Source: a virus
Virus genome (UHGV): UHGV-1352483
Length of the DNA stretch: 64,000 nt
Strand: one strand, 5' to 3'
Each line of letters opens with the position of its first letter. Position 1 is the stretch's first letter. The translations under genes and the position numbers were made by a program. The notes beneath the pieces are model-generated. The model made no database searches. It was given only the letters and a program-made list of their open reading frames with translations, and was not told the origin of the DNA. Positions 1,293 to 5,193 of this stretch are shown here, in pieces.

Positions 1293-2741
1293 TTGCAAAG
1301 TAATAATCAATTAAAGGAGATAAATGAAATGAATAAAGTAAATCCGTCAATAAAGAAATCAACTAGATTTGATACTGAAAGATTGGCTGGTGGTTCAGGA
1401 GCTTTAGTAGCTAAACAGAATAATACAGCATTGTTGAAAAGAGCAGTCCTCGCTAATTTATTATGGGAGGATATAGCTTATATGGATGGAGAATCTGTAG
1501 CTGATGAAATCAAGAGATTGATACCATTATGCCCTGCTGAAGATGTATATGATATAGCTTTGGCTGCAAGAACAGAACAGAAGTTAAGACATACTCCATT
1601 GTTCCTTGCATCAGAAATGTGTAAATATCCTGAACATAAACTATTTGTTTCAGACTTGTTGCCTAGGATAATTACAAGAGCGGATATGCTTGCTGATTTT
1701 CTTGCTATTTATTGGAAGGAAGGTAAGAAACCTATTGCCAATCAAGCAAAGAAAGGTCTTGCGGAAGCCTTTCATAATTTCAATGAATACAAGTTTGCAA
1801 AGTATGATAGGGAATCGGAAATCAAACTGAGGGATGTTTTATTTCTTGTTCATCCTAAACCGAATAATGCAGATGAGGAAGCTCTCTTCAAGAAGATTGC
1901 AGAGAGAAATTTGAGGACTCCCGATACATGGGAGGTAGCATTGTCAGCAGAAGGGAATAAGAAAGAAACATGGGTCAGATTGATTGAAGAAGGTAAGATA
2001 GGAGGACTTGCAATGCTGAGGAATATATCAAATATGATGAAAGCAAGTGTACCGATAAAAGTTATTGAAGAGGGACTAAACAGTATTCAATCTTCAATGC
2101 TCTTACCTTTTGATTTCCTTAAAGCATTCAAACAGAATCCTCAGTTTAGAAGACAGATTGAAGATGCAATGTTAAGTTCTTATGAACACCTTCCTAAACT
2201 TCCAGGCAGAACTCTATTTATATTGGACTGTTCAGGTTCAATGACAGCAAATCTGTCATATAGGTCTCAGCTTACAAGGCTTGATGCTGCAAAAGCTATG
2301 GCTATGCTGGCTATAAACCAATGTGAGGATTATGAGCTTGTATGTACAGCAGGAAATGATAGTAGAAAAAAAGGAGCTCACACAATAATCAATTATCCCT
2401 CAAGAGGATTTGATTTGCTAAGACAGATAGATGATACAAGTCATTTGATAGGTGGAGGAGGAATATTCACAAGACAATGTTTGGAATGGTGTAAGAGTAA
2501 ATATGCAGCAGGGGAACCTTTTGAGAGAATAATAGTATTCTCTGACTCTCAGGACTGTGATTATCCTGAAAAGAGAGTTCCCAAACCATTTGGGAAATAC
2601 AATTATATCTGTGATGTTTCATCAGAACTTAAAGGTGTAGACTATAAGGGAATATGGACAGCGGAAATAAGTAGTTTCAGTGCACATTTCCTTACCTATA
2701 TTGCAGCTATGGAAGGTCTGGAAAATAGATTTGAGGAATAA
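1293..2741 (+). CDS. rsr: Ro60/TROVE-domain + vWA protein (Rsr-like)
   Basis: The C-terminal vWA has the MIDAS motif LFILDCSGSM, then AAKAMAML and RIIVFSDSQD. These parallel the human Ro60 blocks FLLAVDVSASM, AAAMCMVV and VFIVFTDNET. N-terminal segments LAMLRNISNMMKASV, LFLVHPKP and RHTPLFLASEMC parallel Ro60 LLRNLGKMTANSV, LRLSHLKP and TTKQEPMLFALAIC, compared against the remembered human sequence. Two tRNA-like RNAs lie immediately downstream. Confidence 0.75.
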   Translation: MQSNNQLKEINEMNKVNPSIKKSTRFDTERLAGGSGALVAKQNNTALLKRAVLANLLWEDIAYMDGESVADEIKRLIPLCPAEDVYDIALAARTEQKLRHTPLFLASEMCKYPEHKLFVSDLLPRIITRADMLADFLAIYWKEGKKPIANQAKKGLAEAFHNFNEYKFAKYDRESEIKLRDVLFLVHPKPNNADEEALFKKIAERNLRTPDTWEVALSAEGNKKETWVRLIEEGKIGGLAMLRNISNMMKASVPIKVIEEGLNSIQSSMLLPFDFLKAFKQNPQFRRQIEDAMLSSYEHLPKLPGRTLFILDCSGSMTANLSYRSQLTRLDAAKAMAMLAINQCEDYELVCTAGNDSRKKGAHTIINYPSRGFDLLRQIDDTSHLIGGGGIFTRQCLEWCKSKYAAGEPFERIIVFSDSQDCDYPEKRVPKPFGKYNYICDVSSELKGVDYKGIWTAEISSFSAHFLTYIAAMEGLENRFEE

Positions 2742-2841
2742 GATAAAGAAAAAGTACCATTAGTGATTATTAGGGTTACTTCTATAATAATTTGAACAGG
2801 TCAAAACAATACCCTAATGACTGTTCTATGGTACTAATATG

Positions 2842-2971
2842 AAGGGGATAGCTCAGTCTGGTAGAGCACGTATAATACTGTATCTATTGTTATCATCTTT
2901 GGATGTATTGCTGATACAGTTACTTCAGGCTTTTAACCTTGTGGTCGTAGGTTCAAATCCTACTCCCCTTC
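2842..2971 (+). ncRNA. tRNA-like RNA with a ~55-nt insertion (candidate Y RNA / YrlA-like tRNA mimic)
   Basis: Perfect 7-bp acceptor stem AAGGGGA (2842-2848) with TCCCCTT (2964-2970). Canonical positions 8-9 TA. D-arm GCTC-AGTCTGGTA-GAGC (2851-2867). T-arm GTAGG-TTCAAAT-CCTAC (2947-2963). Lys-like anticodon loop CTTTTAA on a weak stem, then a 5-nt variable loop. About 55 extra nt containing an 8-bp hairpin (ACTGTATC/GATACAGT) sit between the D-arm and the anticodon stem, so it is not a canonical tRNA. Confidence 0.6.
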
Positions 2972-2976
2972 CTATA

Positions 2977-3107
2977 GGGGCATGTTACTCTCTGGTATTT
3001 CTAATGAACCTAGGATTAATTAGGATATCAACAGGTGGGAGAGTATCTTATATCTCTGAAATGCAAATAGGAGATTAATAAGTGAGGTTCGAGTCCTCCA
3101 TGCTCCT
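2977..3107 (+). ncRNA. second tandem tRNA-like element (degenerate; candidate second Y RNA-like RNA)
   Basis: Starts 5 nt after the first element. The 7-bp acceptor-like stem GGGGCAT (2977-2983) pairs with ATGCTCC (3100-3106) with one G.U pair. T-arm TGAGG-TTCGAGT-CCTCC (3083-3099) has a canonical TTCGAGT loop. No canonical D or anticodon arm was found between them. Confidence 0.35.
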
Positions 3108-3262
3108 CAATTAAAGAAAAAAAAAAATAAGATTAGTGTATTTAACGCTTACTTCAATTAATCAGTGCAGAATATAAAAATAGCGTTATAACTGTTCTAC
3201 CTTATTATCAAGCCTACTATTCAATAAAAAGAGTAGTAGGCTTTCTTTATTTATAGGATACT

Positions 3263-3634
3263 GTGTTATTATATATGAATAATGAAGTTAAAGTAAGTCT
3301 TACTGTTGTTCTTCCAGGAAGAACTATGGTAAGCCAGCAGGTGGCTGAAAACAAACCATTAGAGAGCTATGATACCATTGTAGTTGAACTTTGGGATAAG
3401 GAAGTACAGAAAAGGGAAAGGATGTTTGTAAAAGTAAGAAAGTCTATTCCTGCCAAACAGTCTATCAATCTTTCTGTGGATGCCTATAAATATATGGTGT
3501 CTGATGAAGCCCCTTATTTTATTAAGTCAAAGGTCTGGAAAGCCATGAATATAAAGAACAGACTTGAAGCTCACTTACAGAAGATTTGTGAACAATTAAA
3601 TGGTATATCATATACCTATGAGGTGTTAAACTAA
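3263..3634 (+). CDS. hypothetical protein
   Basis: 123-aa ORF with no recognisable motifs. Followed by an A11 tract and the next start codon. Confidence 0.4.
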   Translation: MLLYMNNEVKVSLTVVLPGRTMVSQQVAENKPLESYDTIVVELWDKEVQKRERMFVKVRKSIPAKQSINLSVDAYKYMVSDEAPYFIKSKVWKAMNIKNRLEAHLQKICEQLNGISYTYEVLN

Positions 3635-3644
3635 AAAAAAAAAC

Positions 3645-4145
3645 ATGGGAATAACAAAATGGACTCCTGAAATGGAGACAGAATTAAAACATTGTATAGA
3701 GCAACATGGGTGGTCATTAGGCACAGAAGCATTTAGAGCTTTACATCCTTCAATGTCTTATAGTGCATGTGCAAGCAAATGGTACATGTTCAAAAATAAT
3801 GGAGCTACCCATAGAAACCCTCGTGGAAAAGCAAGACTTCTAATCAGGGATAATATTGAGTTCATTAAAGAAGTAATATCTGAAAATCCTGATAACTTAA
3901 GAAGAGCTTTCAACATTATATCCAGAGAATTGAATATTGGAATTTCATATGTACAGGGTTGCTGGTATAATCATGAAAATTCTCCTATGCATAGAAGTAG
4001 GATAGGAAGCTGCTTTATGACTGTTGGCAAAAGAATGGGTGACAATACCAAGAATATAGCAGGAGATGCTTCATATTCTGTTGATTCTAAGGTATATGAG
4101 AAAGCTATTAAGAGGACTCTTAAGAACATTATACATGATAAGTAA
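3645..4145 (+). CDS. hypothetical protein, possible SANT/Myb-like HTH
   Basis: The start codon follows TAA-A11-C (3633-3644). The N-terminal WTPEMETELKHCIEQHGW...W spacing resembles a Myb/SANT repeat. Weak call. Confidence 0.4.
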   Translation: MGITKWTPEMETELKHCIEQHGWSLGTEAFRALHPSMSYSACASKWYMFKNNGATHRNPRGKARLLIRDNIEFIKEVISENPDNLRRAFNIISRELNIGISYVQGCWYNHENSPMHRSRIGSCFMTVGKRMGDNTKNIAGDASYSVDSKVYEKAIKRTLKNIIHDK

Positions 4146-4169
4146 TCAACTGTATTATTAAAGAGAACT

Positions 4170-4355
4170 GTGTTATTTATTAAGGTAGTAGTAATTCTGT
4201 TTGTTGTAGTTTGGGTTATAATATCCTTAAAGAGATATAAGCCTAAGATTGAGATTGTAGAATCATATAATACTATAATAGTATTACTATGGTATAATAA
4301 AAAAGACTGGTTTGGGAGTATTACCCGAGCCTATAAAATATTGTTTGAAATATGA
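4170..4355 (+). CDS. small hydrophobic protein
   Basis: 61 aa with one strongly hydrophobic segment (VVVILFVVVWVIISL). Could also be non-coding spacer. Confidence 0.25.
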   Translation: MLFIKVVVILFVVVWVIISLKRYKPKIEIVESYNTIIVLLWYNKKDWFGSITRAYKILFEI

Positions 4356-4819
4356 AGAAATTTCTATTGATTTATAGTATCCTCATTACAGCTGTATTTG
4401 GATTCTATTTTCTGTATAAGGAACATAAGGCAGTACCGGAATCTATGGAAGTAGGAGTAGTATTAGCCCAACCTGAGTTCCTGTTTAAGGAACTGAATGA
4501 TTCCATACTTATGCTGGCTTGTGAACACTATGGCTTAAAGGAGCCTAAGATAGTAACAGCCCAAGCTATATTGGAGACAGGGTGGTTCAGGTCTAAAGTA
4601 TTCAGAGAATATAATAACCCATTTGGACTGTTCAATAGCAGGACTATGCAGTATTTCAGATTCAGGCATTGGTCTGATGCTGTTATAATGTACAGGGATA
4701 ATATACAGAAAAGACTCAAGAGGAATGAGGACTATTATAATTTCCTTAAAAGGATAGGATATGCGGAAGACGAAGATTATATCAATAAAGTAAAGGCTTT
4801 AACTGATAGTCTTAGATGA
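4352..4819 (+). CDS. membrane-anchored glucosaminidase-family peptidoglycan hydrolase
   Basis: N-terminal TM helix (LLIYSILITAVFGFYFLY). The motif AQAILETGWFRS...NNPFGLFN matches the FlgJ/mannosyl-glycoprotein endo-beta-N-acetylglucosaminidase signature AQAxLESGWG...NNLFGIK. Confidence 0.6.
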   Translation: MKKFLLIYSILITAVFGFYFLYKEHKAVPESMEVGVVLAQPEFLFKELNDSILMLACEHYGLKEPKIVTAQAILETGWFRSKVFREYNNPFGLFNSRTMQYFRFRHWSDAVIMYRDNIQKRLKRNEDYYNFLKRIGYAEDEDYINKVKALTDSLR

Positions 4820-4839
4820 TAAAGACAAAAAAAAAGTTT

Positions 4840-5193
4840 ATGGAAATCAAGAGATTGAATATAAAATGGATTGATAAGGAAAATTTCATTTATACAGATA
4901 AAGAAGGGAAGGAGTTTTCCTACAAATGGATAGATGGAGGGAAATATTTCTCCAATAGAGGGGGACAGGCCAACGACCTTATATTTGATAGGGCTGTAGG
5001 AAATAAAGAGCAGAAGAGGCAATTCACACAGGAAGTTCTTGGGTATTGTGAAGGAGGGGATTTTCCTGTATGTTATTCCCTTGAAGATGCTACCAAATTA
5101 GTAAATGCCCTTAGAAAAGAATATCCTTGCTCAATTACTTCCTGTATAGTTGAAGACGAAGATGATGAAATAAAGCTTGATTTTTGTATTTAA
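4840..5193 (+). CDS. hypothetical protein
   Basis: In-frame with track ORF 4816..5193. The ATG at 4840 follows A9 (4827-4835) and is the more likely start. Confidence 0.4.
   Translation: MEIKRLNIKWIDKENFIYTDKEGKEFSYKWIDGGKYFSNRGGQANDLIFDRAVGNKEQKRQFTQEVLGYCEGGDFPVCYSLEDATKLVNALRKEYPCSITSCIVEDEDDEIKLDFCI

Follow-up and report, generated by a model that had tools for sequence, protein, structure and literature searches.

A tRNA-like RNA with a conserved bulged-helix module beside the TROVE gene of a crAss-like phage is a probable Y RNA

The 64,000-nucleotide (nt) window, that is, the whole stretch of the virus genome UHGV-1352483 that was analysed, contains a gene for a TROVE/Ro60-like protein and, starting 100 nt past its stop codon on the same strand, an RNA element that resembles a tRNA (positions 2842–2971). 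We consider it probable that this element is a phage Y RNA, a mimic of tRNA and a partner of the Ro60 protein encoded upstream. The initial annotation of the stretch described a tRNA-like body with a hairpin inserted in it. The upstream Ro60/TROVE gene, a second tRNA-like element and two hairpins with the same motifs were absent from that description, as was the finding that the inserted hairpin is a conserved bulged-helix module common to both hairpins of the gap downstream of TROVE.

The cloverleaf parts of the element are all present. The perfect 7-bp acceptor stem (AAGGGGA, 2842–2848, with TCCCCTT, 2964–2970; discriminator C2971) is followed by U8 and A9, the D arm GCTC / AGTCTGGTA / GAGC (2851–2867) and A26, and the T arm GTAGG / TTCAAAT / CCTAC (2947–2963) is accompanied by the variable loop TGGTC. 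The nucleotides of the tRNA tertiary pairs are complete (U8, A14, G15:C48, G18G19, T54-T55-C56 and G53:C61). The anticodon stem is in two parts: nucleotides C27 and G28 (2869–2870) pair with T42 and G43 (2940–2941) as C27-G43 and G28-U42, and AGG (2927–2929; nt 29–31) pairs with CCT (2937–2939; nt 39–41) around the loop CTTTTAA (2930–2936). The minimum free energy (MFE) fold of the element gives the acceptor, D and T helices together with two helices of the insert, S2 and S1 (z = −2.6). The acceptor stem, the D and T arms and the CTTTTAA loop were thus found where the initial annotation had placed them, and its 8-bp hairpin corresponds to helix S2, ACTGTATC (2877–2884) with GATACAGT (2913–2920). 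The insertion that it reported inside the tRNA-like body is real, while its size had to be corrected from about 55 to 56 nt and its site from 26/27 to 28/29, as C27-G43 and G28-U42 pair across it.

With its length of 130 nt, as against about 70–95 nt in a canonical tRNA, and its interrupted 5-bp anticodon stem, the element departs from the tRNA standard. ARAGORN with default settings called 0 genes in the intact element, the Rfam tRNA model RF00005 matched only its 3′ half with 22.2 bits, below the gathering score of 29, and Rfam gave no group I signal. These results bear out the earlier statement that it is neither a normal tRNA nor a tRNA with a group I intron. Of the classes offered in its place, that of a tRNA mimic or scaffold is the best supported, and that of a split or permuted tRNA was not upheld: the window element is in the normal tRNA order, and it is the relatives in other lineages that are permuted, in the order of YrlA RNAs. 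In its intron mode, ARAGORN proposed a tRNA-Cys(aca) with a 41-nt intron at 2842–2972. This call was rejected because its anticodon falls inside the conserved helix S2; it also turns the CTTTTAA hairpin into a variable arm, an assignment unsupported by the relatives.

The inserted module is made up of S2, an internal loop with UAGUG opposite UGUUCU, S1 and then the motif UUACUUCA. In the insert, the linker TATAAT is followed by S2′ ACTGTATC, TATTGTTAT, the S1 hairpin CATC-TTTG-GATG, TATTGCT, S2 GATACAGT and (T)TACTTC. The two stand-alone hairpins that flank both tRNA-likes of the gap carry the motifs UAGUG, UUACUUC(A/U) and UGUUCU and look like classic Y RNA-style hairpins. Hairpin A is composed of S1 AGTACCAT, UAGUG, S2 TATTAGGG, TTACTTCT, a 28-nt apical loop, S2′ CCCTAATG, TGTTCT and S1′ ATGGTACT, and hairpin D of S1 AATAAGAT, UAGUG, S2 TTTAACGC, TTACTTCA, a 26-nt apical loop, S2′ GCGTTATA, TGTTCT and S1′ ACCTTATT. 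Both S1 and S2 of hairpin A are present in its MFE fold; the MFE support for hairpin D is weak (z = −0.97).

For the comparison with relatives, 59 IMG/VR loci with TROVE homologues of 55–72% identity were scanned. The script that collected the tRNA-likes demanded an acceptor stem free of mismatches and a T stem that is largely paired, and left S2, S1, the D stem and the 27–28/42–43 pairs unselected; the script that collected the stand-alone RNAs demanded pairing of S1 and S2. The scan gave 71 distinct sequences of 118–150 nt in which a T arm accompanies a perfect acceptor stem. Four of them are overlaps with ordinary upstream tRNAs, and the remainder follow TROVE closely, in numbers of one to three per locus. 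The TROVE-adjacent tRNA-likes have a common core consisting of S2′ (..ACTCT..), (A)ATGTTCY, the short hairpin S1, TRGTG NNNN, S2 (..AGAG) and TTACTTCA, the only exception being the second tRNA-like element of the window. The site of the module is the anticodon stem in type 1, the class of the element at 2842–2971, and the D loop in types 2 and 3, whose anticodon arm is intact (5 bp and a 7-nt loop). In the stand-alone RNAs (115 distinct ones, both window hairpins included), the module is the terminal stem, with the layout S1(7–9 bp)-TAGTG-NN-S2(8 bp)-TTACTTCA-apical part (mostly 19–95 nt)-S2′-NN-TGTTCT-S1′, and the UUACUUCA motif was found in nearly all of them. Since the module is present in stand-alone RNAs and at differing sites in the tRNA-like classes, it is, by this comparison, an independent and conserved unit and no mere spacer.

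A covariance model built from 32 relatives, with the window excluded and the structure taken from RNAalifold, matched 2842–2971 over its full length with 102.6 bits (E = 3e-22), and the next match of this leave-one-out model in the rest of the 64 kb reached only E = 0.35. Judged by this model, the likeness of the type-1 element to its relatives is far beyond chance. Model R1 detected type-1 elements at 87–143 bits in 46 of the 59 loci. In the alignment of 31 type-1 elements, made by MAFFT with no structural input, RNAalifold showed covariation at 7/7 pairs of the acceptor stem, 4/5 of the T stem and 3 pairs of the 8-bp S2; the D stem is invariant in these relatives, as is TACTT. With the 27–28/42–43 pairs added, 99.0% of the 868 cells were paired versus 81.9% in shuffled alignments, and double changes were seen in 17 of the 28 pairs. 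None of 500 shuffles matched the alignment on any of five measures, and only 37–49% of the cells were paired in the slid controls. S2 and the 27–28/42–43 pairs, which were outside the selection criteria, were 98% paired and covarying. The comparative check of the insertion helix that had been proposed with the initial annotation therefore gave a conserved and covarying helix.

The stand-alone RNAs showed the same kind of evidence. In alignment A2, which holds 33 of them including hairpin A, RNAalifold revealed compensatory changes at 15 of the 16 pairs of S1 and S2. The AG of UAGUG pairs with the CU of UGUUCU and the first U is bulged, the counts being A-U 30 and G-C 3 for one internal-loop pair and G-C 32 for the other; the variant UGGUG goes with UGUUCC, which is a covariation of UAGUG/UGUUCU. 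The module embedded in the window element has TATTG opposite TGTTAT, a compensated change from G-C to U-A at the second of these pairs, and a similar variant, TGTTG opposite TGTTAC, occurs in locus L367.

The element could also be thought of as a genuine tRNA-Lys(UUU) with a novel 56-nt intervening sequence at 28/29, removed by an endonuclease and a ligase to leave 75 nt. After the in silico removal of 2871–2926, ARAGORN indeed calls a 75-nt tRNA-Lys(ttt). Most type-1 relatives also retain the hairpin of 3 bp and 7 nt with U33 and A37, CTTTTAA recurs in five acceptor classes, and the anticodon arm of types 2 and 3 is the intact one mentioned above. However, the loop variants within acceptor classes include CTTTTAA, CTTGTAA, CTATTAA, CTTATAA, ATGTGGA, a 9-nt loop or a missing hairpin, and the GGAGGGA class by itself has CTTTTAA, CTTGTAA, CTATTAA, a 9-nt loop (crAss001) or no hairpin. 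Because a decoding tRNA would not tolerate an anticodon that varies within one acceptor class, and for the following reasons, we regard this explanation as highly unlikely. The supposed intron is the best-conserved part of the element and also exists apart from any tRNA, as stand-alone hairpins; the element is always linked to TROVE; and the homologues of other lineages cannot be spliced into a tRNA, as their termini lie in the module stem and their acceptor hairpin is closed. Rfam gave no signal of a group I intron or of another intron family. The junction of archaeal tRNA introns consists of two 3-nt bulges separated by a 4-bp helix, and no such bulge-helix-bulge was seen, by inspection only, at the junctions CG/TATAAT and TTACTTC/AGG (the slash marks the boundary of the insert). 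The recurrence of CTTTTAA in five acceptor classes suggests that the tRNA-like body descends from tRNA-Lys(UUU).

The presumed protein partner was identified by several matches. The protein encoded upstream matches Pfam TROVE with 58 bits (cutoff 23), phrog_850 ‘RNA-binding protein’ with E = 7e-28 and the PDB entries 9KOP/9L5Y, the Ro60 protein of the Thermus phage phiLo, with E = 4.4e-18 over residues 52–425, the vWA DxSGS motif included. Ro60 of phiLo is its closest solved homologue, and by these matches the window protein is a true Ro60 homologue. The window belongs to a crAss-like phage whose nearest GenBank records, cr106_1, crAss001 and the PhiCrAssBcn phages, are all Steigviridae, and the matching gene is annotated as TROVE domain-containing in crAss001 and cr106_1. 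The TROVE gene of crAss001 is early, expressed 0–10 min after infection, and its product has been called a "possible ribonucleoprotein component" (PMC8375218). No RNA partner of crAss TROVE was named in the crAss or Y RNA literature searched. The highest TROVE identity in IMG/VR and the metagenomes was 72%; the sole 100% match (L401) ends inside the TROVE gene, and the genome collection gave only two contigs of metagenome-assembled genomes as close relatives.

The module RNAs are closely linked to this gene in the loci that were sampled. Among 57 loci that extend for 1 kb or more past TROVE, module-bearing tRNA-likes were present in 47, stand-alone elements in 51 and both in 45; all module RNAs in these loci are on the TROVE strand, and their median start is 293 nt past the stop codon. 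All 157 matches of the structural detector in the related loci were on the TROVE strand, with 0 on the other, and the whole window gave two matches, both in the gap. Exact-pattern scans of IMG/VR were useless as a census because the number of matches was about that expected by chance, and the loci were reused as a background set, comprising 265 IMG/VR loci (2.3 Mb) from three loose pattern scans, mostly chance matches. In this set, TROVE (27–71% identical to the window protein) was present in 27 of the 32 full-module loci versus 2 of the 233 module-less ones (Fisher p = 1.3e-29), and L255 is the 28th full-module locus with TROVE, of which only the C-terminus is seen at the locus edge. L233, L234, L235, L186, L264 and L247 have the RNAs upstream of TROVE and in the same orientation as the gene. 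As these loci are from distant lineages, the linkage survives a change of gene order and deep protein divergence. In three loci with a TROVE protein 55–57% identical (L051, L052 and L055), the scripts found no module RNA or module tRNA-like within 3 kb downstream, and these loci have either a differing RNA variant or RNAs placed elsewhere.

This linkage bears on another explanation, in which the module binds a factor other than Ro60, the tRNA-Lys-like RNA is a decoy or sensor for host defences that target tRNA (e.g., anticodon nucleases), and TROVE is a mere neighbour. In line with it, the Lys(UUU)-like loop is kept and varies in a lineage-specific way, TROVE in distant lineages lies within tRNA arrays, and phage TROVE has been linked to RNA repair with a tRNA-like partner (PMC7824862). 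But TROVE stays linked to the module across 27–72% protein identity and changes of gene order, and no other conserved neighbour was identified, and we find such an arrangement quite unlikely. No RNA repair genes were found beside TROVE, the neighbours being unknowns, an endolysin-like protein and helicases.

The probable identity as a Y RNA is further suggested by the architecture of the relatives. In bacteria, Ro60 orthologues have as binding partners Y RNAs whose genes adjoin that of Ro60; in the widespread YrlA class, the Ro60-binding stem with the 5′ and 3′ ends is topped by the T arm, an acceptor-like hairpin that is closed, and the D arm, and tRNA-like Y RNAs have been reported from the vicinity of Ro60 in 254 bacteria and 22 phages (PMC4201824). 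The Ro60 protein of a Thermus phage binds two adjacent Y-like RNAs (PMC12135203). The RNAs of the distant lineages have the layout S1-UGGUG-NN-S2-UUACUUCN-small hairpin-T arm-closed acceptor hairpin (GNRA or UUCG loop)-UA-D arm-spacer-S2′-NNN-UGUUCC-S1′, which is the YrlA order V-T-AS-D and was met in L233, L264, L266, L174 and L235. The window element has the same parts in the same circular order with the chain break moved to the acceptor stem; by this comparison, it has the YrlA layout in circularly permuted form, with the normal tRNA order restored. The Rfam YrlA model scored 43.7 and 37.4 bits (E = 2.9e-8 and 1.9e-6) on two distant relatives, below the gathering score of 69, and covered the tRNA-like core; on 14 distant loci, only ordinary tRNAs and transfer-messenger RNAs (tmRNAs) reached the Rfam threshold.

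Further topologies were observed among these phages. The six loci with upstream RNAs, together with L174, L266 and L132, are phage contigs of ~35–255 kb with a TROVE protein 30–44% identical to that of the window; the module recurs there in YrlA-order RNAs that are often located upstream of TROVE and inside long tRNA arrays, and L247 and L264 also have tmRNA-like genes. In L045 (1244–1384) and L046 (2459–2599), a third topology occurs upstream of TROVE, with a whole 72-nt tRNA-like nested apically: S1-UGGUG-S2-UUACUUCA-(tRNA-like)-S2′-AAUUCC-S1′. In L004–L008, L010 and L029, the first element after TROVE (e.g., L004 4421–4556) is a module RNA of 136–145 nt, the apical domain of which combines a T arm (e.g., ACAGG/TTCGAGT/CCTGT) with a short closed hairpin, mostly GNRA-capped, and has no clear D arm after it. 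These RNAs look like an intermediate, YrlA-like form inside crAss-like phages.

The non-coding gap downstream of TROVE (2742–3262, 520 nt) holds four units separated by spacers of ~5–20 nt, in the order hairpin A, type-1 tRNA-like, second tRNA-like and hairpin D, with a terminator at its end. The coordinates are collected in Table 1.

Table 1. Features of the TROVE gene and of the RNA array downstream of it (positions in the window)
Feature	Position	Strand	Basis
TROVE/Ro60-like gene, 482 aa, presumed protein partner	1293–2741	+	Pfam, phrog and PDB matches
Stand-alone Y-like hairpin RNA A	2752–2836	+	structural motif script, MFE fold, alignment A2
tRNA-like RNA, type 1, complete cloverleaf with 56-nt module	2842–2971	+	sequence, fold, leave-one-out covariance model
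Inserted module	2871–2926	+	same motif set as the stand-alone hairpins, connectivity permuted
UUACUUCA, near-invariant single-stranded motif directly 3′ of S2	2920–2927	+	conservation in relatives
Anticodon-like hairpin AGG / CTTTTAA / CCT, 3 bp and 7-nt loop	2927–2939	+	
Second, divergent tRNA-like element	2977–3107	+	sequence, fold
Stand-alone Y-like hairpin RNA D	3126–3206	+	structural motif script
Intrinsic terminator-like hairpin, 13 bp, then T tract; closes the array of TROVE and non-coding RNAs	3210–3253	+	

An unannotated gap of 520–900 nt is also present downstream of TROVE in cr106_1, crAss001 and cr112_1, with an HNH endonuclease gene between TROVE and the gap in cr112_1; the array of crAss001 (L002 3342–4062) is of the same kind as that of the window. 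BLAST of the gap against GenBank phages gave no match inside it and matched the flanking genes only. Over the whole window, Rfam reported nothing at the gathering thresholds. Its sub-threshold matches were limited to tRNA, YrlA and two chance families; the minus-strand match to mir-3012 is the terminator hairpin.

As side observations, a 79-aa ATG open reading frame (ORF; 2839–3078, +) falls wholly over both tRNA-likes and is almost certainly no gene, and the equivalent region is unannotated in crAss001 and cr106_1. ARAGORN found no ordinary tRNA gene across the 64-kb window; crAss001 and cr112_1 have annotated tRNA genes within ~3 kb upstream of TROVE. The GC skew and the AT skew of the window flip their sign at ~42000, which fits a switch of gene orientation, and crAss-like genomes are typically built of two divergent gene blocks.

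The second tRNA-like element begins 5 nt after the type-1 element and sits where L367 has its ‘type 2’ tRNA-like element. Its acceptor stem is GGGGCAT/ATGCTCC with G3-U70 and its T arm GAGG/TTCGAGT/CCTC; it is without a D stem, and an S2-like helix, TACTCTC/GAGAGTA, comes directly after nt 9. The type-1 covariance models R1 and R2 left it undetected. That this element lost the module motifs and yet keeps the acceptor and T arms, and that the array units are as closely spaced as in tRNA arrays, would agree with a tRNA-like body that is mainly a processing handle: by recruiting RNase P and RNase Z it would free the flanking hairpin Y RNAs and have no effector role of its own, and it may be a decaying tRNA gene with an insertion. 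The type-1 module is, however, fully conserved with compensatory changes, which argues that the type-1 element itself is selected as a carrier of the module, and the tertiary nucleotides of the D and T loops and the anticodon-like hairpin are kept beyond the needs of RNase P or RNase Z. As the sole role of the tRNA-like body, this explanation seems unlikely to us; it is compatible with a tRNA-mimicking Y RNA and no exclusive alternative to it.

Several points weigh against the assignment as a phage Y RNA. The motif of bacterial Ro60 contact, GNCGAAN0-1G, was not found, there being no CGAA anywhere in 2742–3262. The YrlA model RF02553 scored 17 bits on the window region against a gathering score of 69, and the Rfam model Y_RNA (RF00019, metazoan type), which has a terminal stem with a GGUCCGA bulged helix, gave no match at E ≤ 10 in 2000–5000. 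Neither UAGUG nor UUACUUCA is present in the second tRNA-like element. The covariation in the acceptor and T stems of the tRNA-likes and in S1 and S2 of the stand-alone RNAs is partly built in, because the collecting scripts required pairing there. A model in which the RNA is purely a tether for Ro leaves the retention of CTTTTAA across five acceptor classes unexplained.

In spite of these points, we infer the following course of events for a tRNA-mimicking Y RNA beside its Ro60 gene. The array of four RNAs (hairpin, tRNA-like, tRNA-like, hairpin) would probably be co-transcribed with the early TROVE gene and end at 3210–3253. The three arms of the tRNA-like body (acceptor, D and T) and the full set of nucleotides for the usual tertiary pairs are kept, which should allow folding into an L shape and excision by RNase P and RNase Z; the host enzymes would cut the tRNA-like bodies and free the neighbouring hairpins too. 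The module of S1, the internal loop (UAGUG opposite UGUUCU) and S2, together with UUACUUCA, is the likely docking site of Ro60. The tRNA-shaped end may engage a host factor that recognises tRNA and so link the phage Ro60 ring to that factor. By analogy with bacterial and phage Ro60, the particle might serve, during infection, in the decay, quality control or repair of RNA (PMC4201824; PMC12135203; PMC7824862).

A bolder version of this idea is put forward tentatively, and we consider it doubtful. The Y RNAs in tRNA order might mature like tRNAs (RNase P, RNase Z and CCA addition), show a Lys(UUU)-type loop and carry the Ro60 ring, which would make them tethered tRNA decoys or sensors in a host conflict over tRNA cleavage and repair. 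They might also be a missing evolutionary link, in which a tRNA-Lys gained a Ro60-binding module and was then permuted to YrlA.

tRNA-mimicking Y RNAs encoded next to Ro60 genes of phages were known before, and hence this is no new kind of system. What is new is the differing conserved module, the wiring in tRNA order with an open acceptor and an anticodon-like loop, and the arrays that mix at least three module topologies; Rfam 15 has no family covering these RNAs. Crassvirales are among the most abundant human gut viruses. The crAss TROVE protein gains concrete candidate RNA partners and a candidate binding module unlike the CGAA-type site, and its parts are seen wired as in a tRNA, wired as in YrlA or standing alone as bare hairpins. 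As crAss001 is culturable and has the same array, experiments on binding, processing and deletion are directly feasible, and they would address the role of the phage Ro60 particle and the reason why Y RNAs mimic tRNA. For annotation, the practical point is that tRNA finders miss these genes and that the ORF over the tRNA-likes is almost certainly spurious.

Among known RNAs, the closest comparison is with YrlA (RF02553). Both have an adjoining Ro60/TROVE gene on the same strand and several Y RNAs per locus, and both have D and T arms with the tRNA tertiary-pair nucleotides, the D stem of the window element being invariant and its T stem covarying in the 31 relatives. In both, the position of the anticodon stem gives rise to a stack of two helices with an internal loop, and a conserved YUAY (in the window, the UUAC of UUACUUCA) precedes the V or anticodon-like hairpin (PMC4201824). 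Unlike YrlA, in which the arrangement is reversed, the window element ends in an open 7-bp acceptor stem, and its putative Ro stem is closed by a TTTG tetraloop. It also keeps the anticodon-like 7-nt loop, and it has UAGUG/UGUUCU and UUACUUCA in place of GNCGAAN0-1G.

Yrn1 of Deinococcus radiodurans and Yrl1/Yrl2 of phiLo are likewise small Ro60-associated RNAs beside the Ro60 gene (PMC4201824; PMC12135203). Their terminal stem with a bulge or internal loop is the protein site, and the window hairpins share this stem-bulge-stem plan. In contrast to the window RNAs, they use a CGAA-containing motif, Yrn1 has only a partial likeness to tRNA with the terminal stem in the acceptor position, and no description of them combines an open acceptor stem with a Ro module placed internally. 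As for metazoan RNAs, human Y1 and Y3 contain UAGUG..UUAUCUCA..UGUUCU and UGGUG..UUUACAAC..UGUUCC in the order of the phage module (cf. 2761–2783 and 2822–2827 of the window), which may be a coincidence in view of the negative Rfam Y_RNA search.

With tRNAs that have non-canonical introns (archaeal ones with the bulge-helix-bulge, bacterial ones with a group I intron in the anticodon loop), the window element shares a cloverleaf that is interrupted and is restored by deletion. It differs in that its insert of 56 nt looks functional, exists independently of tRNA and changes its site in sister elements. The permuted RNAs, namely two-piece or permuted tmRNA and permuted tRNA genes, resemble this family in having the same helices in a 5′-to-3′ order that depends on the lineage. 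Whereas those RNAs keep the function of tmRNA or tRNA after processing, in the window family the termini shift between the putative protein-binding stem and the acceptor stem of the tRNA mimic.

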